This document shows, in pieces, positions 4,377-29,009 of a stretch of 32,000 bases of DNA. Each line of letters starts with the position of its first letter. Position 1 is the stretch's first letter. The notes beneath the pieces were generated by a model that ran no database searches, was not told the origin of the DNA, and saw nothing but the letters and a program-made list of their open reading frames with translations. Both the position numbers and the translations under genes were made by a program. Source of the DNA: Candidatus Nanosynbacter lyticus (lineage in GTDB: Bacteria > Patescibacteriota > Saccharimonadia > Saccharimonadales > Saccharimonadaceae); NCBI RefSeq assembly GCF_030253515.1, contig NZ_CP124549.1, positions 210,001 to 242,000 of the forward strand, written 5' to 3'.

Positions 4377-4574
4377 CTCGCCGTTAAAAGCGTATGGTCA
4401 CTTTTCATGCTGCTACCTCGTATTCTTTGGATTGGGCGACTACGGACGCGACTAGGAAATTATAAGTTTTGATCACATTCTTCATTCTATGATACGATTG
4501 TAATATAGAGGTCAGGCTTGGTTATGACATCTTGTCCTTGTTACGACGAGAAACTGCAGGAGTTAGGAGGGAGA

Positions 4575-5420
4575 ATGATAGAGGTCAAACATATTACCAA
4601 GACGTACGGCGGCAAGAAAAATGCTTTCGTGGCGTTAGATGATGTTAATATCGAGATCGCGGATGGGGCGAGTGTGGCGATTTTAGGAAAATCTGGTTCG
4701 GGCAAGTCGACGCTGATGCACGCCATCTCGGGATTGGATAAGCCTGAGCGGGGCGAAGTGTTGATTGATGGCGAGGATATTTTGTGCCTCAAGACGTGGG
4801 CAATAGATAGATTTCGCGCCGAGAAGATAGGCTTTATCTTTCAGAGTTTTTTCGTCGAAGGTGATGAAACGTGTTATGACAATGTCAGTTTGTCGCTGGA
4901 AACTGCTGGCGTCCCTCGTGCTCGGCGCAAGCGGCGCATCGAGTCGGCATTAAAAGCGGTTGATTTGACTGATAAGACCAGGGTGCGTGCTAAACATCTC
5001 TCTGGTGGGCAAAAGCAGCGCCTGGCGATCGCCCGGGCTATTGCCGGTGAACCAGCGATCTTGTTCGCCGATGAGCCGACCGGCAATCTTGACTCGGTAA
5101 CGTCGGCGATGATTGAAGATCTGTTATTTGAGTATCAAAAACAGCACGGCGCAACCTTGATTATCGTGACGCATGATGAAGATTTGGCGAAACGATGTGA
5201 GCGGATTGTTCGTATCAAAGATGGTCGAGTTGAATCTGATTCGGCGATTGAAGACGCAATTCGGATCGCTCAAGGTAAAACGGTGGCCTCGAGGGCTCAT
5301 CGTCATGCCGCCACGGTGACAATTGCTGCCGCAGCTCCTCTACCTGAGCCAAAGAAGCCTCGTCGCCAGACGAAACAGTTAAGAACCACGAAAGCTATCA
5401 AGAAGGAGGCGAAGAAATGA
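4575..5420 (+). CDS. ABC transporter ATP-binding protein, paralog of 1149-1847, with basic C-terminal tail
   Basis: It shares GASVAILGKSGSGKSTLMHAISGLD, KIGFIFQSFFV, LSGGQKQRLAIARAI and FADEPTGNLDS with the first ATPase. I moved the start from 4518 to ATG 4575, which aligns with the paralog's MIE(L/V)K and follows AGGAGGG. An extra ~60-aa Ala/Pro/Lys/Arg-rich tail is present. Confidence 0.93.
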   Translation: MIEVKHITKTYGGKKNAFVALDDVNIEIADGASVAILGKSGSGKSTLMHAISGLDKPERGEVLIDGEDILCLKTWAIDRFRAEKIGFIFQSFFVEGDETCYDNVSLSLETAGVPRARRKRRIESALKAVDLTDKTRVRAKHLSGGQKQRLAIARAIAGEPAILFADEPTGNLDSVTSAMIEDLLFEYQKQHGATLIIVTHDEDLAKRCERIVRIKDGRVESDSAIEDAIRIAQGKTVASRAHRHAATVTIAAAAPLPEPKKPRRQTKQLRTTKAIKKEAKK

Positions 5421-6775
5421 AAACGCTAGATATCGTGCGTCGGGCTGGGCGGAATCTGCGGCGAGCTAAGATGCGCACCTTGCTCACTAGTATCGCCATC
5501 GCGGTGGGTGGCTTTGCGATTACCGCCAGTTTGATGGCTGGCGAGGGTGCGCGGCAATATATTGACAGGATCATCAGCAGTAATATTAATCCTCAAGGAT
5601 TGATGATTGGCAAGGCGAGTGAGGCGTTTACCGGTCGCAGCAATAAGCCACTTAAGGAGTATAAGCCGGACACTGGTACACATCGTGGCGCAGAAGTTGA
5701 GCTATTGACTCTTGATGATATAGCCAAACTGAAGGCGCGCAGTGACTTGAAAGATGTGACGCCGCTATATCAATTGAACCCAAAATACCTGACGTTTAGT
5801 ACCAAGTCTGATAAAAAGTACACGGGCGAGGTAGCGATGCGCGATAGCGGTATTCGTGTTGAGACAGTAGCGGGCAAGGCGATGTCTAAGGGTACTCAGT
5901 TGGGGGATAATGAAGTGATAATACCAGAGTCCTACCTTGAGGAATTGGGAATCTCTGCGGACAAGATCATCGGTAGCAAGTTGACGCTCACCGTTGAGCA
6001 AGCGCCGCAGAAAGTCAGTGAAGAGGACATTGCCAAGGCGTATCGGCAGCGCGGCGAGGCTGGCGTGCGTGAACTAACAAGTAGTAAGTTGAAGCACAAA
6101 GAGCTGACCATTGTAGCGGTATCAAAGAAATCGCCGGAGCAAGCGACGAATACACCAAATACCTATGTCAGCCCAGAGACTGCCAAGGAGCTGACTGAAT
6201 TTGCAACGCTCGGTACGCCGCAGTACCAAAAGTATATTACCGCTTCAGCAACGGTGGCTGATGGTAAAAAGCCCGAAGACGTCAAGAAAGCTCTTAAAGA
6301 TGAATTGAACCTGTCAGTGGTAACTTCGAAAGATATCCAGGAGCTGCTCTTTACGTTCGTAAACTTGCTGCAGTGGATTGTGTTTGGGTTTGGTGTGTTG
6401 GCCTTGGTGGTGAGTATATTTGGCATCGTCAATACTCAATACATTTCGGTGTTGGAGCGAACGCAACAGATTGGACTAATGAAGGCGCTTGGTGCTAGTC
6501 GGCGTGATATTGCCAGGCTGTTCCGTTACGAAGCAGCATGGGTTGGCTTCCTGGGTGGTGCACTCGGAGTGCTCGGCGCGTGGGGAATTGGTGAGTTGTG
6601 TAACCCAATGATCTCTAAGGCGCTTAATTTGGGGGAACATTCACTCCTGATATTTGTACCAATTAGCGGTCTCGTCATTGTCGTCGGGTTGATGTTAGTA
6701 GCAATTATTGCGGGATTCTTGCCGAGCCGCAAAGCGGCGAAGCTTGACCCAATTGAGGCGCTGCGTACGGAATGA
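5417..6775 (+). CDS. ABC transporter permease, MacB/FtsX type (full length)
   Basis: N-terminal TM helix (LLTSIAIAVGGFAITASLMAG), a ~270-aa extracytoplasmic domain, then the FtsX C-terminal bundle. The ATGA start/stop overlap with the ATPase gene suggests translational coupling. Confidence 0.93.
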   Translation: MKTLDIVRRAGRNLRRAKMRTLLTSIAIAVGGFAITASLMAGEGARQYIDRIISSNINPQGLMIGKASEAFTGRSNKPLKEYKPDTGTHRGAEVELLTLDDIAKLKARSDLKDVTPLYQLNPKYLTFSTKSDKKYTGEVAMRDSGIRVETVAGKAMSKGTQLGDNEVIIPESYLEELGISADKIIGSKLTLTVEQAPQKVSEEDIAKAYRQRGEAGVRELTSSKLKHKELTIVAVSKKSPEQATNTPNTYVSPETAKELTEFATLGTPQYQKYITASATVADGKKPEDVKKALKDELNLSVVTSKDIQELLFTFVNLLQWIVFGFGVLALVVSIFGIVNTQYISVLERTQQIGLMKALGASRRDIARLFRYEAAWVGFLGGALGVLGAWGIGELCNPMISKALNLGEHSLLIFVPISGLVIVVGLMLVAIIAGFLPSRKAAKLDPIEALRTE

Positions 6776-6859
6776 CTGGCTCATACTACTTAATTATAGC
6801 TGACCTGTCGTAATTACCCGCGATTTTTGATAAAAATTATGGCTTTTAGAATGTGCTCA

Positions 6860-6868
6860 TGCTATAAT
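6860..6868 (+). promoter_or_regulatory. extended -10 box TGCTATAAT upstream of the collagen-like gene
   Basis: Exact TGCTATAAT lies 48 nt upstream of ATG 6917 in an AT-rich intergenic region. A second TATAAT (6906-6911) and a TACAAT (6911-6916) abut the start codon. Confidence 0.5.
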
Positions 6869-6916
6869 CGTGCTAAATAGGCGTATAGCAAGATCAAATA
6901 GGGGATATAATACAAT

Positions 6917-8962
6917 ATGAACGAGCGCTCAGATAAAACATATGCGAGTCGTAAACTGGTAATATGTTTATTTATCGTCACGATACTGATTATTCTACTG
7001 CTGTGGTGGTGGCCGTGGGGCGGCGGTAATCGCTTTTACAAGGGGGTTCGTCCAGATCAGATTAGCCTACGCCAAAGCAATGGCAAGGTACAGTGGCAGT
7101 TTATGGATGGCGACTGGCAGGATATTGTCTCTCTTTCTGAGTTGCGAGGTGATAAGGGTGAGAAAGGCGACAAGGGTGACAAAGGTGACACTGGTGAGGC
7201 CGGAGCTGCTGGTAAAGACGGTAAAAACGGCGTAAGTACAGGACAGCGTGGAGCTAACGGTCGGGATGGAGCGAATGGTAAAAACGGTGCGACCGGGCCA
7301 AAGGGCGATACCGGTGCTCAGGGTCCAGCTGGTCCACGGGGCCAAAAAGGCGACAAGGGCGAGAAGGGCGATGCCAATGGTGTCGTCGGTCCGGCTGGCC
7401 CACAGGGTCCCAAAGGTGATACTGGCCCACAGGGTCAAAAAGGTGATAAGGGCGACAAAGGTGATACTGGCGCCAAGGGAGATAAAGGAGACGCCGGCGC
7501 TAAGGGTGACAAGGGCGAGAAGGGCGATGCCGGCCAACAGGGTGCTAAAGGTGATACCGGAGCGACGGGCGCACAAGGCCAAAAGGGTGATGCTGGTAAC
7601 GATGGGCGAGAGATTGAGTTACAGAAAACCGCGTTGTATATCCAGTGGCGCTACAGGGGTGATGCTACTTGGAACAACCTCATTGCATTATCTGACTTGA
7701 AGGGTCCGAAGGGCGATAAGGGTGATACCGGTCCACAAGGTCCCGCTGGCCCGCAAGGTGCAGCAGGGTCTCAAGGTGCAACCGGTGCACAAGGTTCTCA
7801 GGGGCCTGCTGGTCCACAAGGCCCGAAGGGCGACACTGGCCCTGCTGGCCCACAGGGCCCAGCTGGTCCCCAAGGCCAAAAGGGTGAGAAGGGTGAAAAA
7901 GGTAATGATGGTCCACAAGGTCCTGCAGGTCCTCAGGGAGCTAAAGGTGATACCGGTCCGGTAGGTCCAGTCGGTCCCGCTGGCCCGCAAGGACTCAAAG
8001 GCGCTAAAGGCGATACTGGAGCGACAGGTGCTCAAGGTCAAAAAGGTGACAAAGGTGACACTGGCCCAGTAGGTCCTCAGGGCCTGCCCGGCCCCCAGGG
8101 TATACCAGGTGTTAAGGGGGATAAAGGTCCTATCGGCCCACAGGGCGCTAAAGGTGACACTGGCCCAGCGGGGCCACAGGGTCCACAGGGCGCTAAGGGT
8201 GAGAAAGGCGAGCCAGGAGCCAAGGGCGACACCGGCCCTGCCGGCCCGCAAGGAGCTAAGGGAGATGCCGGTGCACCTGGAGCTAAAGGCCCGAAGGGCG
8301 ACGCTGGTCCCCAAGGACAAAAGGGTGATAAGGGCGAAGCTGGTGCAAATGCAACAGTTAATGTGACGAATAGTACTCAGCCATGTTCGACTGGCCTTAC
8401 TGTCACGGGCAGTGGTACGCCGAATATTGGACTGACATTTACCGGATCAAACATTCCGGCCGGTGGGTCAATTGGTCAGGTGCTGATGAAAAAGTCGGCG
8501 GCAGATTGTGATGTTGCGTGGAGGAGCTTGCCGCAGGAAACAATGTTTGCCGGTTCCATCGGCGTCGGTAATGGTAACATCACGGCGGTGAATGTTAATG
8601 CTGACACTTATACAGCCATTCCGATGACAACGATCACCACGAATACCGGCGGCGGTACCTGGGATCCGGTGAATCACACGTATACCATTCCAAGCGACGG
8701 TGTATATTTCATCCGTTCCAGTATTCGTACCGTTGACAACTCACCTATGCGTAACATTTACCAAATTGTTAATGACGTGAATGGTGATCGCCCAGAGGGC
8801 ACGTGGTCGTCTAATCAAGCCGGCATTCGCCGTTCGACGCTGCCGTATTCACGGATGATGCGGGCGACAGCTGGTACCAAGCTAAAGTTGATCGTCGTAT
8901 CAGACCTCCAGAGTGTGCAACTCAGCGATGCAAGCCTGACAATTACCAAGCTTTCGAACTAG
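6917..8962 (+). CDS. membrane-anchored collagen-like triple-helix repeat protein with globular C-terminal domain
   Basis: N-terminal hydrophobic anchor ([19 protein letters not shown]) and two Gly-X-Y tracts (aa 78-230 and aa 263-476). A ~200-aa non-repetitive, beta-rich C-terminal domain follows. Confidence 0.9.
7148..7606 (+). repeat. collagen-like Gly-X-Y tract 1 (48 triplets, two single-residue interruptions)
   Basis: Counted by hand. Gly falls at every third residue from G78 to G230, apart from the breaks GVSTG (aa 105-109) and GDANG (aa 151-155). It is dominated by [12 protein letters not shown] triplets. Confidence 0.9.
7703..8344 (+). repeat. collagen-like Gly-X-Y tract 2 (71 uninterrupted triplets)
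   Basis: Counted by hand. Gly falls at every third residue from G263 to G476, and the tract is rich in GPQ/GPA/GDT/GAK. Confidence 0.9.
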
Positions 8963-8992
8963 TGAAGTTAGCGAGATAAATTATCGTATATC

Positions 8993-9001
8993 TGCTACAA
9001 T
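8993..9001 (+). promoter_or_regulatory. extended -10 box TGCTACAAT, leaderless-type promoter of serS
   Basis: Six nt (gatacc) separate the hexamer from ATG 9008, and there is no Shine-Dalgarno sequence. Confidence 0.6.
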
Positions 9002-9007
9002 GATACC

Positions 9008-10303
9008 ATGTTAGATATTCGCTTTATTCGAGATAACGCCGAAGCGGTGCAAGCTGCGGCGAACCACAAGGGGTGTGACGTGTCTATTGCGACATTGTTG
9101 CAATTAGACGACGAGCGTCGTGAGGCGCAGCGGCAGGTTGATGAGTTGCGCCAGCAGCGTAACGAGATTGCTGCGCAGATGAAGGGAGGCAAGCCCGAAC
9201 CAAGCCTGATTGAGCAGGGCAAGGCCATCAAGGCCAAGTTGAGCGGGCTTGAGGCTCAGCTGAGCGAGGTCGAGGAACGCTACATAACGCTACTAAAGCA
9301 GGTTCCTAATATGCCGCACGCCGACGTGCCAGTTGGTCTGAGTGAGGATGAAAACGTTGAAGTAAAGGTCGTCGGTGATATCCCAGCCTTTGATTTTATG
9401 CCGAAAAATCACTACGAAATCGCCGAGGCAAAAGGCTGGCTCGACAAAGAGCGCGCTGCCAAGGTTGCTGGCGCTCGCTTTGCTTATATCATGGGTGATT
9501 TGGTGTTGTTGCAACAGGCAATTATCCAGTTTGTGATCACATCTCTCACCAACCCAGCGGTGATCAAGGAGATCGCCGAAAAGGCTGGCCTTGGTGTCAA
9601 TACAAAACCATTCATCCCAGTGCTGCCGCCATTGATGATCCGTACCGAGCCGTATGATCAGATGGATCGTCTCCAGCCGAGTGATGATCGATACAAAATT
9701 GAAGGCGAGGAACTGTGGCTACAGGGGAGCGCTGAGCATGTGCTCGGTAGTATGCATGCGGGTGAGATTTTTGATGCGAAACAGTTACCACTTCGATACC
9801 TGGGCTTTGCAACCAGCTTCCGCAAAGAAGCAGGGACGTACGGCAAGGATATGGAGGGGCTGATCCGGATGCACCAGTTTGATAAGCTCGAGATGGAGAG
9901 CTTCACCGAGGCGAAGGATAGTTATAACGAGCACCTGCTATTTATCGCGATTCAAGAGTGGCTTTTGGCTCAGCTCAAGCTACCGTACCATGTCCTGATG
10001 AAATGCACCGCTGATATTGGTAAACCAAATGCGCGCGGTGTTGATATGGAAGTATGGTTACCGGGTCAGGGCAAGTACCGCGAGACGCATACTGCTGACT
10101 ATATGACTGACTATCAGGCGCGTCGTTTGATGACGCGGGTGCGCACGGACAACGGAGTTGAATTGATCCACACGAATGATGCGACGGCCTTTGCGCTGGG
10201 GCGCTGCATGGTGGCGATTATTGAGAATTATCAGACCGCAGAGGGTGATGTCATGGTGCCAGAAGCACTTCGCCCGTATATGAATGGCCGCGAGATGATA
10301 TAA
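9008..10303 (+). CDS. serS: seryl-tRNA synthetase
   Basis: N-terminal coiled-coil arm and class II motif 2 (FRKEAGTYGKDMEGLIRMHQFDKLEM). Motif 3 region TNDATAFALGRCMVAIIENYQ. Length 431 aa. Confidence 0.95.
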   Translation: MLDIRFIRDNAEAVQAAANHKGCDVSIATLLQLDDERREAQRQVDELRQQRNEIAAQMKGGKPEPSLIEQGKAIKAKLSGLEAQLSEVEERYITLLKQVPNMPHADVPVGLSEDENVEVKVVGDIPAFDFMPKNHYEIAEAKGWLDKERAAKVAGARFAYIMGDLVLLQQAIIQFVITSLTNPAVIKEIAEKAGLGVNTKPFIPVLPPLMIRTEPYDQMDRLQPSDDRYKIEGEELWLQGSAEHVLGSMHAGEIFDAKQLPLRYLGFATSFRKEAGTYGKDMEGLIRMHQFDKLEMESFTEAKDSYNEHLLFIAIQEWLLAQLKLPYHVLMKCTADIGKPNARGVDMEVWLPGQGKYRETHTADYMTDYQARRLMTRVRTDNGVELIHTNDATAFALGRCMVAIIENYQTAEGDVMVPEALRPYMNGREMI

Positions 10304-24110: not shown

Positions 24111-24794
24111 ATGAACGAGCAGAATATGACGACAATGGAAGCTATTTTCAACAGACGAGTGGATAGAAGAACGGTACTACTGGGTGGCTTGGGCACCGTT
24201 GGTGCAGTGGCATTCGGTGGTGCTGTGCACGAATCTCGAGAAATGCCTCGTGACGGAGAAGCGCTGCAGGCACTACACGCGGTACAGACGGCGGCGGCAG
24301 AGGTTGCTGAGCGCGGTGTCAATGGTCAGACGACAACGGAAAAGATGATTGCAGCGACACTGCAGCACGAGAGTGGTGCAACGGCAAAGGTTGAGGTGGC
24401 GCTTTCCGAGCCGCTTGAGCAATATATCTCAGACGAGGGGTCATATGCGTCAGCCGGGGCAAATATGGTGGACGGACTGCTGGGTCAGATCGGGCGGGAG
24501 GTGTTTGCTGATACCGATCAACAGATGACGACGGAAATGGCGAAGCAGGCGCGGCCAACATTGGCATTTTTGATCATGGCGTTGAATCAGCAACGCATCG
24601 GCCTGGGCGCTGGAGTTTTACTAGCGACATGTCAGCGGTATTACCGGAATGCAATTGCTCCTCCTGCGGCCGAGCAAGCAGCAGAGGCGCGTCAAGCGCA
24701 GCTTGATCTTTTGGAGAATGAGTTGGTGGGTCATTTGGGGCAGCTCGCAAACTATGATCCGGCGTTACGGCTTAACCGTCCGGTGCTCGGCTAG
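24111..24794 (+). CDS. hypothetical protein with N-terminal twin-arginine-like signal or anchor
   Basis: The N-terminus reads NRRVDRRTVLLGGLGTVGAVAFGGA. The rest is Ala/Gln/Glu-rich and looks helical, with no motif I recognised. A TGTTATATAAC -10-like box (24092-24102) lies 8-10 nt upstream of the ATG. Confidence 0.6.
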   Translation: MNEQNMTTMEAIFNRRVDRRTVLLGGLGTVGAVAFGGAVHESREMPRDGEALQALHAVQTAAAEVAERGVNGQTTTEKMIAATLQHESGATAKVEVALSEPLEQYISDEGSYASAGANMVDGLLGQIGREVFADTDQQMTTEMAKQARPTLAFLIMALNQQRIGLGAGVLLATCQRYYRNAIAPPAAEQAAEARQAQLDLLENELVGHLGQLANYDPALRLNRPVLG

Positions 24795-26091
24795 TCCGCA
24801 AGATCAGTAGCTCGCGGGCGACAGTTTGGTCGGGGCGGCGATAGATGAGCGGGATGTGGTTGAGTTGGTGATAGCCAAGTTTTTGGAGGTTTTTTATTAG
24901 CGGCAGATGAGTGGCCCGGCCGGATGCGTCGTACCACGCTGGCACGGCGATACACAGCGATGTGTTTGGCGCTAGCTGCGGACGGATATTAGTGAGGAAG
25001 CCGGTGATAATGTGATTACAGTTGCCGGCAACTTCTGCTAGTTTTTGGGGTGCGGGCGGCGCAGAAAAGGGCTGGCCGAGGTAGGTTTCGCAGACGACGG
25101 CGGTGAGGTGTTTGCTGCTCGGCCAGTGGTGCGTGGTGGCGTCGGCTTGATGGATATCAATGACGTTGCCGGGTGCAGTGAAGGTCGATTGTAGCCACGA
25201 CAGGTTCTCAGTGGTGTAATCAACCATTTTCTGGCTGAGGTCGGTGCCGACGACATCGTAGCCGGTGAGCAGCGCTTCTTGCAGGACGGTGCCGGTGCCG
25301 CAGAACGGGTCGAGGATCGTCACGGCAGGTCGGCTTCCAGCCGTCTCCTCCAAGTCGAATGCATCCGGCAACGCCGTCCGCAGAACCATCGACTTATCGG
25401 AGAGGCTGGAAGCCGACCCCGTCGCAGAATTGCTGCACGATCTTTGATGAGCTAGCGATCCGGCGCCCAGTGCTAAATTCAGCATAATCTGCGCTAATTT
25501 GGGCGGTAGCATGCCAACGAAAGCGTCGCGCTTGGGACGATGGCGGTCGCGGCGGGTATAGGCGGTGATGTTTTGGACACCGCGGCTCTCGGCGATGATC
25601 AGGCGGCGGTCGGTCGTTTTAACAAGCAGCAGCTCGACTTTATGCGGCGAACCACCGAGCTTGTTATTGTGCGCGGTGGCGGTAGAGAGGGCTGGCTGAT
25701 CGTTCGGGATGAGACGGAGGCTGGTGCCAGATTTTTTGAGAGATGATTTGAGGATGAGGCCGGTTTTTTGGATATCACGGGCGCTCACAGCTAGGCCATA
25801 GGCGCTGAGGCCGAGGGTGATTTTATGCGGCGAGTGCGCCCACTTGGCTTGATAATGCTGGGTGATGAAGCGCGAAGCGGCGAGGAGCGAGGCTTTATCG
25901 GCGCGGCTGGCTGGTAGCTCGGTGATCACTTTGGCGCATTTAACGGTGCCGCCTAAGGTGGTAATGTCAAATTGAGATGTTTGAACTTCGGCACATTGCT
26001 GGCTGATGCGATTGACACAGTCTGCGCCAAACACCGCCGCAAGTTCGGCGAGCGAGATCTCTGGCTGGCGGCCAAGCAGGGTGATGTACAT
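24772..26091 (-). CDS. TRM11/UPF0020-like SAM-dependent (probably RNA) methyltransferase
   Basis: Motif I ILDPFCGTGTVLQEA, an acidic residue after beta2 (VVGTDLS), and the upstream pattern FVGMLPPKLAQIMLNLA typical of THUMP-associated methylases. I moved the start from 26226 to the ATG at 26091 behind a -10 box. Confidence 0.7.
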   Translation of the reverse strand: MYITLLGRQPEISLAELAAVFGADCVNRISQQCAEVQTSQFDITTLGGTVKCAKVITELPASRADKASLLAASRFITQHYQAKWAHSPHKITLGLSAYGLAVSARDIQKTGLILKSSLKKSGTSLRLIPNDQPALSTATAHNNKLGGSPHKVELLLVKTTDRRLIIAESRGVQNITAYTRRDRHRPKRDAFVGMLPPKLAQIMLNLALGAGSLAHQRSCSNSATGSASSLSDKSMVLRTALPDAFDLEETAGSRPAVTILDPFCGTGTVLQEALLTGYDVVGTDLSQKMVDYTTENLSWLQSTFTAPGNVIDIHQADATTHHWPSSKHLTAVVCETYLGQPFSAPPAPQKLAEVAGNCNHIITGFLTNIRPQLAPNTSLCIAVPAWYDASGRATHLPLIKNLQKLGYHQLNHIPLIYRRPDQTVARELLILRTSRAPDG

Positions 26092-26097
26092 GGTTTG

Positions 26098-26106
26098 ATT
26101 ATAGCA
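26098..26106 (-). promoter_or_regulatory. extended -10 box TGCTATAAT (minus strand), leaderless-type promoter of the methyltransferase gene
   Basis: The reverse complement of 26098-26106 is TGCTATAAT, and 6 nt separate it from the ATG at 26091. It sits back-to-back with the plus-strand box at 26116-26124. Confidence 0.6.
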
Positions 26107-26115
26107 AAAACTGCG

Positions 26116-26124
26116 TGATATAAT
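26116..26124 (+). promoter_or_regulatory. extended -10 box TGATATAAT, leaderless-type promoter of the 26132 operon
   Basis: Seven nt (gggcgat) separate it from ATG 26132. The track's ATG 26123 lies inside the hexamer. Confidence 0.55.
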
Positions 26125-26131
26125 GGGCGAT

Positions 26132-27220
26132 ATGGTGTCGAAAGGGATACGGCAACTTTTGGAAGCATGTAAGTCACCACGGACGATCATGAGCCTCGTG
26201 ACGTTGGCAGTGCTGGTGCTGATCATTTTTCTGTCGCGCGCCGAGCTAGCGCGGGCATGGGAGCTACTTGGCCGGGCAAATATCTGGCTGTTGATGCTAC
26301 TGGTGCCGTTTCAAATTATCGTCTATTTTGCGGGCGGTGAGATGATTTTTGCCTATCTTCGTGATAAAAAACTGATCGGGCATATCTCGCGGTTTGAGCA
26401 GACGCGGATTGCGCTGGAGCTAAATCTGGTCAATCACATTTTCCCGTCAGGTGGCGTCAGCGGTATATCCTACACGACGTGGCGGATGCACAAGCTCGGC
26501 GTTAGCTCGGCGCGCTCGACGTTTGCTCAGGTGATCCGTTACGTGACGGGCTTTTTGTCGCTGATGGTGCTGCTGATATTGGCGGTGCTGATCTTGTCAA
26601 TTGATGGGCAGGTCAATCGCTACATCGTGACGTCAAGTTTCTTCTTGGTGCTAGTGGTGCTGGCGCTAACATTTGGGCTGATTTTTATGTTCTCGTCGCG
26701 CAAGCGCATGCACAACACGGCGGTGCGGGTGTCGCGAGTCGTGAATGCAGTGGTGCGTTGGGCGACGCTGGGCAAGATCAAACGGCTGCTGGTTTCGACG
26801 AAAATCGAAGCGTTTTTCGCTGAGATGCATGATGATTTCGTGGAACTGTCAGAGCACCGGCGCCTACTCATCAAGCCGCTGGTCTGGGGCGCAATTTATG
26901 CCATTTTCGATGTGTTGATGTTCATCGTAGCGTTTTGGGCACTGGGTGTGTCGGTCAATCCGGCGGTGCTGATCATTGGCTATGGCGTGGCAGGGCTGGC
27001 GAGTCTGGTGGCCTTTACGCCGGGTGGTGCGGGCGTGTACGAAGCGATTATGATCGTTTTCTTGAGTATGACCGGTGTGGCGCCGGACGTTGCCATTGCT
27101 GGGATTGTGCTGACGCGGGTGATCTTGCTCGCGGGAACGATTATCTTTGGGTATATGTTCTACCAGCACGCGCTGATCAAATATGGGCAGCCAGATGATG
27201 ACGGTGGCGCCGCGGTTTAG
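26132..27220 (+). CDS. UPF0104 / lysylphosphatidylglycerol-synthase-TM-region (flippase-like) family membrane protein
   Basis: About 8 predicted TM helices and the C-terminal motif FTPGGAGVYEAIM, which I recall as typical of this family. Confidence 0.7.
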   Translation: MVSKGIRQLLEACKSPRTIMSLVTLAVLVLIIFLSRAELARAWELLGRANIWLLMLLVPFQIIVYFAGGEMIFAYLRDKKLIGHISRFEQTRIALELNLVNHIFPSGGVSGISYTTWRMHKLGVSSARSTFAQVIRYVTGFLSLMVLLILAVLILSIDGQVNRYIVTSSFFLVLVVLALTFGLIFMFSSRKRMHNTAVRVSRVVNAVVRWATLGKIKRLLVSTKIEAFFAEMHDDFVELSEHRRLLIKPLVWGAIYAIFDVLMFIVAFWALGVSVNPAVLIIGYGVAGLASLVAFTPGGAGVYEAIMIVFLSMTGVAPDVAIAGIVLTRVILLAGTIIFGYMFYQHALIKYGQPDDDGGAAV

Positions 27221-28292: not shown

Positions 28293-28488
28293 GACAAACG
28301 AAAAAACGATTGAGCAGATGATGGCGGAGCTGAACGAGCGCATCGCATGGTTTCAGGGCGAGGAGTTTAATCTGGACGAGGCCAAGCAGCGGTTCATTGA
28401 GGCGCGGCAGCTGGCGAAGAAGATTACGGCGGCGCTGGACGATATGCAGCACGATATTACGGTGCTTAGCGAGGATTTTAGCGCGTGA
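28279..28488 (+). CDS. xseB: exodeoxyribonuclease VII small subunit
   Basis: A small helical protein of XseB pattern (ELNERIAWFQGEEFNLDEAKQRFIEARQLAKKI). It overlaps the end of xseA. I prefer GTG 28279 over the track's TTG 28270, but the start is uncertain. Confidence 0.8.
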   Translation: MKNDKTNEKTIEQMMAELNERIAWFQGEEFNLDEAKQRFIEARQLAKKITAALDDMQHDITVLSEDFSA

Positions 28489-29009
28489 CATGGACGCTGT
28501 GGCTTGGTGGCGCGATTCTGATGATCTTTGCGCTGCCAGTATTGATCGGTGCGCCGTATGTGCCGTCACGGTCGCGCGAAGTGCAGCGGTTATTTGCCGA
28601 GGCGTTGCCACTCGGTAAGGGCGACATCGTGCTTGATATCGGGTCGGGCGATGGCGTGGTGCTCATGATAGCAGCCCAGCAGGGCGCGCGGGCGATTGGC
28701 TATGAGATTAATCCGTTCCTGGTGCTAATATCGCGCTGGCGGCTGCGAAAATTACCGGGCGCCCGAGTGCACTGGGCGAATATCTGGCGGCAGCCGGTGC
28801 TTGACAAGGTGACGGTGATGTATGCCTTTGGTGATGGTCGCGATATCGCAAAGATGTTTCAGCTGGCCAGGCGCCAAGCAGCCGCCCAGACCGAGCCGCT
28901 GACTTTCGTGAGCTACGGATTTTCTATCCCTGGCACGCGACCGACAAAAGAATACCACGGCTATTTTCTCTATCGGCTGCCGGGAGGCTTTACATCGCCC
29001 GAAGCATAA
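28485..29009 (+). CDS. membrane-anchored class I SAM-dependent methyltransferase (FAM173/ATPSCKMT-like architecture)
   Basis: An N-terminal TM helix (LWLGGAILMIFALPVLIG) is followed immediately by APYVPS, motif I VLDIGSGDGVV and post-I GYEINP. The GTGA overlap joins it to the xseB stop. Confidence 0.75.
   Translation: MTWTLWLGGAILMIFALPVLIGAPYVPSRSREVQRLFAEALPLGKGDIVLDIGSGDGVVLMIAAQQGARAIGYEINPFLVLISRWRLRKLPGARVHWANIWRQPVLDKVTVMYAFGDGRDIAKMFQLARRQAAAQTEPLTFVSYGFSIPGTRPTKEYHGYFLYRLPGGFTSPEA

Follow-up and report, generated by a model that had tools for sequence, protein, structure and literature searches.

What use might a host-dependent bacterium with a small genome make of a collagen fiber fixed in its own membrane? 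The question is raised by a gene in a 32,000-nucleotide (nt) stretch of a Saccharibacteria genome (contig NZ_CP124549.1, positions 210,001 to 242,000; hereafter the window). Read from an ATG start, the coding sequence (positions 6917..8962 of the window, + strand) specifies 681 amino acids (aa) plus a stop codon. A first-pass annotation, made from the letters of the DNA, described the product as a collagen-like fiber with two stalks and proposed that it attaches the cell to a host. Public records annotate the family merely as "collagen-like protein" or "hypothetical protein," and exact-sequence look-ups of the fiber protein, the neighboring SerRS, and three full-length relatives returned no record. 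The domain architecture of the fiber protein is now well supported. The best explanation, which we consider probable, is a type-II-anchored, trimeric, jointed surface fiber with an exchangeable receptor-binding tip that recognizes the host bacterium.

How is the protein held at the cell? It opens with a stub of 13 residues, four of them basic (R4, K7, R12, and K13; aa 1-13, 6917..6955, + strand), followed by one strongly hydrophobic segment (aa 14-32; 6956..7012, + strand) that agrees with the N-terminal transmembrane anchor first noted. The Kyte-Doolittle mean of this segment over 19 residues is 2.93, against 1.09 for the next best elsewhere in the protein, and the segment is kept in all three groups of the family described below. 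Following the positive-inside rule, the stub would be cytoplasmic and the orientation N-in, C-out (type II); aa 14-32 would then be a single transmembrane helix and signal anchor, predicted to put the remaining protein outside the cell. The possibility of a lipoprotein or a cleavable signal peptide was rejected because the h-region spans 19-20 residues and is not followed by an A-x-A site, and because "LVIC" forms no lipobox (its Cys is absent in group 2). A Pfam search of aa 1-78 at E <= 10 gave no match, and a virion-attachment domain (e.g., PfN, PF08400) is not present there.

The bulk of the protein consists of Gly-X-Y triplets in two tracts. By sequence parse, stalk 1 (aa 78-232; 7148..7612, + strand) is made of runs of 10, 15, and 26 triplets (aa 78-107, 109-153, and 155-232, the last including the junction triplet GRE), with breaks of one residue each at T108 (7238-7240, + strand) and N154 (7376-7378, + strand). 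Stalk 2 (aa 263-478; 7703..8350, + strand) is Pro-rich at X and runs uninterrupted for 72 triplets, or 71 without the final GAN. The two breaks and the unbroken second tract had been read correctly at first, whereas the count of 48 triplets for the first tract is corrected to 50-51, and that of 71 for the second was slightly low. Pfam Collagen (PF01391) matches with E = 1.4e-56 (188 bits versus a cutoff of 27.2). Pro accounts for 31% of the residues at X and 3% of those at Y, and charged residues make up 37% of X and Y together; the commonest triplets include GAK, and GPT falls outside the top 15. Such a composition is typical of hydroxyproline-free bacterial collagens and compatible with a triple helix. 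If triple-helical, at 0.286 nm per residue, stalk 1 would measure ~44 nm and stalk 2 ~62 nm.

Each stalk is preceded by a copy of a short module, and it is here that a connection to phages appears. Module A (aa 48-78; 7058..7150, + strand) and module A' (aa 232-263; 7610..7705, + strand) were delimited with a module hidden Markov model (HMM); as originally quoted they start at aa 49 and aa 233, respectively. The two can indeed be aligned, with one gap and 29-33% identity in three alignments that differ in their flanks. In every family member both modules score 47-63 bits against the module HMM, and all complete members have exactly two, with A-type and A'-type copies orthologous across groups. 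When A' with short flanks was searched by tblastn against 50,697 phage records, 64 of them matched, in tail-fiber or "tail assembly" genes, with E values down to 1e-9 and 50-60% identity. The matched genes carry tail-protein annotation and are sited in phage structural clusters; the hosts of these phages are Xylella, Stenotrophomonas, Erwinia, Pseudomonas, Clavibacter, and Clostridium. A' also matches phrog_19976 (E = 1e-5).

Viral contigs carry the same unit in quantity. A scan of IMG/VR with a five-sequence alignment found 180 contigs that encode a relative of the module, and the 80 loci kept hold 80 open reading frames (ORFs) with 150 modules, at 1-8 copies per protein. Among the 122 complete viral modules, at least two Gly-X-Y triplets stand before the module in 113, after it in 97, and on both sides in 89. 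The junctions are stereotyped, starting ...G-x-D-G-[R/K/A]-x-[V/I]-E-L-Q... and ending ...L-x-G-x-x-G.... Because the viral modules mostly have collagen both before and after them, the module is better seen as an in-line unit than as an N-terminal cap. The AlphaFold2 monomer of A' with its flanks predicts a three-stranded beta unit (IELQK, YIQWRY, and NNLIA) with a predicted local distance difference test (pLDDT) score of ~95; the collagen flanks are modeled with low confidence, as expected for a single chain. The sequences thus point to an in-line beta unit of phage collagenous fibers, which would close one triple helix and open the next.

Is the module already known under another name? A profile of it against PDB, Pfam, and NCBIfam gave nothing significant, and no Pfam family, Pf2 (PF03406) included, matches either copy at E <= 10 beyond chance level. 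Searched by word index against 5.8 billion proteins, the module gave one match only. The database search proposed in the first-pass annotation therefore places the module in phage tail fibers and in none of Pfam, NCBIfam, or PDB; it is not restricted to prophages, since the window gene sits outside any phage cluster. This 32-aa module is a widespread phage tail-fiber repeat that has neither a Pfam or NCBIfam model nor a solved structure, and it deserves its own family definition. As a unit that would break off one collagen triple helix and start another, it bears on collagen folding and on the design of jointed collagen fibers. Among the viral loci (L069-L148), high copy numbers are seen in L093 (8), L082 (6), L136 (6), and L100 (5), and copies of the form VELQ..THIQWRY.G...W.NL.AL..L.G are often spaced by just 2-6 Gly-X-Y triplets.

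What does the fiber carry at its end? The globular C-terminus, first put at about 200 aa, is 203 aa long (aa 479-681) and divides into a 57-aa neck and a 146-aa head. The neck (aa 479-535; 8351..8521, + strand) is the signature of the family: it is 63-77% identical across all groups regardless of head type, and a C-terminal query found the stretch at 63-72% identity in three otherwise differing proteins. It contains two invariant Cys residues, C491 and C532, which are the sole extracellular Cys of the protein. The second half of the neck gives a weak match to a phage tail-fiber motif. This motif, G..G.vL.K.s....d..W, lies at aa 512-535 (8450-8521) ahead of the C1q-like head; unrelated phage-like proteins (e.g., LPDGGTTGQALVKASNADGDAEW) have it ahead of the head as well, and it recurs in many phage tail fibers. 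Trimeric fibers probably share it as a common element of the neck.

The head (aa 536-681; 8522..8959, + strand) had been read as a distal globular domain, and structure prediction and fold comparison give it a fold like that of BclA. The AlphaFold2 model, built on an alignment of 47 relatives, is all-beta, with a pLDDT of 95.4 and a predicted template modeling score (pTM) of 0.89. Compared with PDB by Foldseek, the model has ExsFA (5e-8) and BxpB as its top matches, along with BclA, EDA-A1, C1QTNF5, C1QL, C1q, Caprin-2, and two phage tail structures, all at a probability of 1.00 and template modeling (TM) scores of 0.6-0.77. The BclA structures 1wck, 2r6q, 3tyj, and 2z5w match with E values of ~1e-6 to 2e-6 and TM scores of 0.66-0.73 (0.69/0.73 for 1wck), and the C1q/TNF matches (EDA-A1, C1QTNF5, C1QL1/3, C1q, and Caprin-2) reach 0.61-0.77. 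Among viral models (BFVD), the matches are phage tail-fiber and receptor-binding tips, with TM scores up to 0.79. The head is thus modeled as a ten-strand C1q/TNF jelly roll, similar to BclA_C. The C1q/TNF fold is an obligate trimer that stands C-terminal to a collagen stalk in C1q, collagens VIII and X, adiponectin, EDA, and BclA.

Sequence searches agree where enough relatives were used. The 47-sequence head profile finds cerebellin (3.8e-6) and the EMILIN-1 gC1q domain (0.006) in PDB; a PDB search with the single C-terminal sequence gave chance matches only, and a two-sequence profile did no better. Pfam BclA_C matches 11 of the 47 head relatives and Pfam C1q (PF00386) 4 of the 47 at E <= 0.01, and the window protein itself has no match to PF00386. 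A phmmer search of aa 536-681 against 1.84 billion representative proteins gave 162 relatives at E <= 1e-3, and the domain forms the extreme C-terminus in 126 of 136 relatives. A tblastn search with this head against the phage records gave no match, so the evidence for its link to phages comes from a PHROG profile and from the comparison of folds. The closest relatives from outside Saccharibacteria (P0009-P0015, P0022, P0037, P0057, and others) are C-terminal domains of secreted proteins without collagen; their N-termini have a signal peptide followed by "AQVGIGT..P" and are Bacteroidota-like by appearance.

How constant is this plan among relatives? A scan of 185,579 species genomes with the neck alignment found 64 loci, all of them from Candidatus Saccharibacteria or Nanosynbacter, which bears out the initial supposition that the source is a host-dependent epibiont with a small genome. 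The genomes with the fiber include complete ones, such as those of strain 106.1.1 of oral taxon 488 and of Nanosynbacter TM7-008. From metagenomes came a further 119 stretches encoding a relative, and 78 loci were retained. All family members found come from Saccharibacteria genomes or metagenomes, and several are oral-labeled or from oral taxa. The metagenome locus L149 has an ORF of the same length as the window gene (681 aa) and the same counts of 51 and 72 triplets.

The family falls into three groups. Group 1, to which the window belongs with L005-L011 and L149-L173, has proteins of 630-690 aa with 40-54 triplets in stalk 1, 55-73 in stalk 2, and a C1q-like head. In group 2 (L012-L043 and others; ~484-523 aa), stalk 1 has 46-59 triplets, stalk 2 is fixed at 11, and the C1q-like head is 52-57% identical to that of the window. 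Group 3, from Nanosynbacter (L044-L065 and others; ~387-437 aa), has no stalk 1, 10-27 triplets in stalk 2, and an unrelated head of ~174 aa; module A is kept, followed by a non-collagen linker of 4 or 20 residues in place of stalk 1. Even among group 1 strains with 95-100% identical necks, stalk 1 ranges over 40-53 triplets and stalk 2 over 55-73. Stalks 1 and 2 vary independently in length, and the comparison of presence and length among relatives that had been suggested at the outset thus finds the gene at 64 genome loci with both stalks variable.

The heads show a more radical kind of variation. Groups 1 and 2 share head type 1, the C1q-like one, whereas Nanosynbacter and L064 have head type 2. 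Head 2 is 36-38% identical (E = 1e-25) to tail-fiber tips of oral Streptococcus mitis-group phages, and it is also homologous to tail-fiber tips of Corynebacterium and Arthrobacter phages and to a tail-fiber domain protein of the TM7 phage DolZOral124. Judged by its neighboring genes, the window's group is close to Nanosynbacter (BacA 78%, HPF 87%, and SecA 92% identity) and more distant from group 2 (60%, 62%, and 79%), with L064 outside both. The N-terminal region of the window's fiber protein is 67% identical to that of group 2 and only 44-48% identical to that of Nanosynbacter, and the neck, at 63-77%, is equidistant among them. Because head type and N-terminal similarity conflict with the relationships given by BacA, HPF, and SecA, at least two head replacements are needed. 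By these comparisons, an unrelated phage-type head has replaced the C1q head in some lineages.

Given so many phage connections, could the gene simply belong to a phage? It might be a stranded prophage tail fiber, or a domesticated fiber directed against phages or competitors (a receptor decoy or a superinfection exclusion factor). In favor of this, the nearest relatives of each extracellular part are found in phage tail fibers, and a TM7 phage carries a head-2-like domain. However, there are no phage genes anywhere in the 32-kb window. Its other genes encode two MacB/FtsX ABC pairs, PspC, BacA, SerRS, HPF, SecA, an M16 peptidase, a Mur ligase, RF, FtsEX, a CHAP hydrolase, CtpA, and others. 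The local order is bacA/ABC transporter, fiber, serS, hpf, and secA. In each of the 60 related loci whose sequence continues past its 3' end, the fiber gene stands directly upstream of serS and on its strand, with a gap of 48-392 nt (48-245 nt in all but the truncated L041). Where upstream sequence is present, the gene lies 3' of bacA or of a MacB permease. This synteny persists across lineages whose SecA proteins are just 73-79% identical, nearly all genomes have an intact reading frame, and the N-terminus is a transmembrane anchor in place of a virion-attachment domain. With such synteny and housekeeping neighbors, the fiber gene is a vertically kept core chromosomal gene, not a prophage; a prophage origin or remnant is contradicted and was rejected. 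The first-pass annotation had named confinement to phage gene clusters as evidence against a host-attachment fiber; the neighbors are housekeeping genes instead, though the module is a phage tail-fiber repeat. We regard a phage-related element of either kind as very improbable.

A different relation to phages fits better with a surface fiber that recognizes the host. The extracellular parts (module, collagen, neck motif, and head) are all of the kinds used in phage tail fibers, and head swapping together with homology to phage receptor-binding tips fits a role in recognition or attachment. Recognition of the host bacterium is the best-supported candidate function because the organism is an obligate epibiont, receptor-type tips have been exchanged between lineages, and stalk length is polymorphic. 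Conservation at one locus across many human-associated Saccharibacteria species, a head confidently predicted to be of the ligand-binding kind, swapped heads, and strain-variable stalks are hallmarks of phage host-range determinants. It is tempting to go further and suggest that Saccharibacteria domesticated a phage tail fiber on a membrane anchor, so that the epibiont recognizes its bacterial host in the fashion of a phage; we offer this tentatively. If true, the exchangeable head, C1q-like or of the streptococcal/actinophage type, would decide the choice of host and the expandable stalks the distance reached, and the fiber would be a genetically tractable host-range determinant of epibiotic Patescibacteria.

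How might such a fiber be assembled? We picture a parallel homotrimer, jointed and ~100 nm long, in which the parts would follow in the order cytoplasmic stub, transmembrane helix, module A, stalk 1 (~44 nm), module A', stalk 2 (~62 nm), Cys neck, and jelly-roll tip. By analogy with BclA, C1q, and phage PfC, the C1q-like head, possibly helped by the neck, would be the main driver of trimerization, and the collagen would zip from C to N. The invariant Cys residues of the neck suggest disulfide stapling. The modules would form small trimeric knobs, at which one triple helix stops and the following one begins in register, serving as joints or re-registration nodes and not as sole nucleators. The ligand of the head would lie on a different surface, in all probability an actinobacterial host's envelope. 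Specificity and reach would then be adjusted by swapping heads and altering stalk length, in the manner of phage host-range determinants.

This picture modifies the original idea that each stalk is nucleated by the module in front of it. The adjacency of module and stalk is compatible with that idea. However, viral modules are flanked by collagen on both sides, group 3 keeps module A without stalk 1, and nucleation from the C-terminal end is documented in the closest systems. The BclA C-terminal domain and gC1q domains renucleate collagen, as the phage PfC domain does. Since C-terminal trimerization domains have this ability, the C1q-like head would nucleate stalk 2 at least as well as the module.

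Several observations weigh against a fiber for specific host recognition and need to be set beside it. The BclA_C family (PF18573) scores 25.8-27.8 bits against the head (E 1e-5 to 2.5e-6, profile positions 9-128 of 128), and its gathering score is 38. The Nanosynbacter fiber, with ~10-27 triplets (~9-23 nm), may barely clear the cell wall. Among species representatives of group 2, head and BacA alike are 98% identical, so that replacement is seen between lineages and fast diversification within a lineage is not. In the cultivated Nanosynbacter sp. TM7-008 (CP157587.1), a TGA stands for TGG at the invariant Trp of module A (L049, 7572-7574) and separates the anchor, with half of module A, from the remaining protein. 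Either the gene was truly inactivated in culture or the sequence contains an error; in the first case, the fiber would be dispensable in laboratory co-culture. Finally, our search of the literature on Saccharibacteria found no description of this protein, and host attachment has been credited to type IV pili and a few adhesins (PMC10633639, PMC11623550).

Some of these points would suit a plainer role. The protein could form a non-specific coat or spacer, like the "hairy nap" of BclA: a hydrophilic, protective brush without a specific host ligand that would determine the properties of the surface or how far the epibiont stays from its surroundings. The plan of a collagen stalk with a C-terminal C1q-like head is that of BclA, the heads are highly conserved within a lineage (98% in group 2), and the apparently inactivated TM7-008 copy fits a non-essential coat. 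A terminator was looked for in the 45-nt gap between the fiber gene and serS and none was found; the two genes are therefore probably co-transcribed, which suggests constitutive expression. What a coat leaves unexplained is the replacement of the head, on the same neck, by an unrelated domain of the phage receptor-binding type, and the collagen is without the GPT repeats that bear the glycans of BclA. We consider a coat a distinctly less likely role than host recognition, and a more likely one than either of the other alternatives.

The oral setting raises one more alternative, namely a fiber aimed at the mammalian host that would bind human receptors or complement regulators and so contribute to contact with the epithelium or to modulation of immunity. 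Among bacterial collagen-like proteins, integrins and factor H are bound by Scl1, and complement components by BclA. The family comes from Saccharibacteria, several of them oral-labeled, and the head has the C1q/TNF fold. Oral Saccharibacteria do interact directly with epithelial cells, but the study that reports this ascribes the epithelial effect to type IV pili and TLR2 (PMC13194787). Head 2, moreover, is related to phage tips that bind Gram-positive envelopes, and because the C1q-like fold is generic among phage tips, it is no evidence of C1q mimicry. A mammalian target therefore seems unlikely to us, and we return to the host-recognizing fiber.

Which known systems does this fiber most resemble? 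It works like BclA and collagenous phage fibers, with the topology of an animal type II transmembrane collagen. BclA shares a collagen stalk of strain-variable length and a C-terminal C1q/TNF head. The window protein differs from BclA in having an N-terminal transmembrane anchor, in an ultrasmall epibiont, instead of an exosporium-targeting domain, and in having two stalks parted by an in-line beta module, an additional 57-aa Cys-containing neck, no GPT repeats, and a BclA_C score below the gathering cutoff. Saccharibacteria are not known to sporulate.

The phage counterparts include the tail fibers of Erwinia phage S6, Xylella phages Sano and Salvo, Clostridium phage phiCp-D, and the Escherichia coli prophage protein EPclB. 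EPclB has the order PfN-PCoil-Col-Pf2-Col-PfC, in which two collagen domains are parted by a small repeat; in electron micrographs it is a rod with a central bead, and its PfC domain trimerizes and renucleates collagen (PMC3368898). Like these tail fibers, the window protein has collagen segments parted by a small globular repeat (the 32-aa module at 50-60% identity) and a C-terminal head of the receptor-binding type, and its family changes in length by multiples of three residues and exchanges heads in mosaic fashion. Unlike them, it is encoded at a vertically conserved housekeeping locus and has a membrane anchor instead of a virion-attachment domain; its in-line module, furthermore, is not the Pf2 (PF03406) of EPclB.

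The animal type II transmembrane collagens offer the nearest topology: an N-terminal signal anchor, an interrupted collagen stalk, and a C-terminal TNF/C1q head that is trimeric and binds ligands. The likeness is greatest to ectodysplasin A (EDA-A1), whose structure 1rj7 is among the best fold matches to the head, and looser to collagens XIII and XVII and to MARCO/SR-A. For ectodysplasin A the likeness lies in the design, and any homology would be very distant and limited to the jelly-roll fold; the fiber differs in being bacterial, in its phage-type modules, and in giving no evidence of shedding or signaling. Streptococcal Scl1 and Scl2 and Legionella Lcl resemble the fiber as hydroxyproline-free bacterial collagens with Pro at X and many charged residues, and they act as surface adhesins. 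Scl has the opposite polarity, with an N-terminal head and a C-terminal LPXTG anchor; no LPXTG was seen on reading the translation of the window gene. The NCBIfam models for SclA (263.6 versus 400), SclB (216.2 versus 325), and Lcl (234.2 versus 500) all score below their cutoffs and match the collagen region only.

For the question of how Saccharibacteria and other Patescibacteria choose and hold their hosts, the fiber is an undescribed candidate for recognizing surfaces such as those of host bacteria. Saccharibacteria are naturally transformable, and the idea is directly testable in a genetically tractable epibiont.

The signals around the gene are modest. The leader (6776-6916, 141 nt) is AT-rich and holds an extended -10-like box, TGcTATAAT (6860..6868, + strand), and a purine-rich, Shine-Dalgarno-like AGGGGAT (6900..6906, + strand) 10 nt 5' of the ATG, both read directly from the sequence. 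Because a consensus scan gave no full -35/-10 promoter on the + strand of the leader, TGcTATAAT is a candidate promoter only. The gene itself does not lie in an AT-rich region, as had been stated: its G+C content is 0.58 and 0.54 over positions 7001-9000, versus ~0.53 for the whole window, and the leader is the sole AT-rich part. Rfam and tRNA scans of the 32-kb window found nothing.

The neighborhood of the fiber gene shows further exchange. A second pair of ABC ATPase and MacB permease genes (4518-6775), directly 5' of the fiber gene, occurs only in the window, L005/L006, and group 2; it is absent from L007-L011 and Nanosynbacter, where bacA abuts the fiber gene. Since the lineage pattern is the same, one recombination event could have moved the ABC/MacB pair and the fiber N-terminus together. 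On the other side, serS (9008-10303) exists in two deeply divergent forms, one shared by the window's group and L064 (73% identity) and the other by group 2 and Nanosynbacter (67%). Across forms (window, L012, L047, L052, and L064 compared), identity is 44-48%, versus 73-92% for SecA in the same genomes. This distribution conflicts with BacA, HPF, and SecA and suggests that the serS beside the fiber gene was replaced by a xenologue.

Two minor observations concern other sequences. In L001 (GCA_015471965.1, BNJU01000618.1), the genes for SerRS, SecA, RF, MacB permease, and others are split into 2-3 pieces; the truncated fiber gene there (P0004) should not be read as biological because the assembly is probably frameshift-rich. 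Farther along the window, the ORFs at 24772-26226 (- strand) and 28485-29009 (+ strand) match DNA methyltransferase-type domains (N6_N4_Mtase/methyltransferase). They flank the genes for an LPG_synthase_TM-family membrane protein and the exonuclease VII large subunit and may be the remnant of a restriction-modification system.

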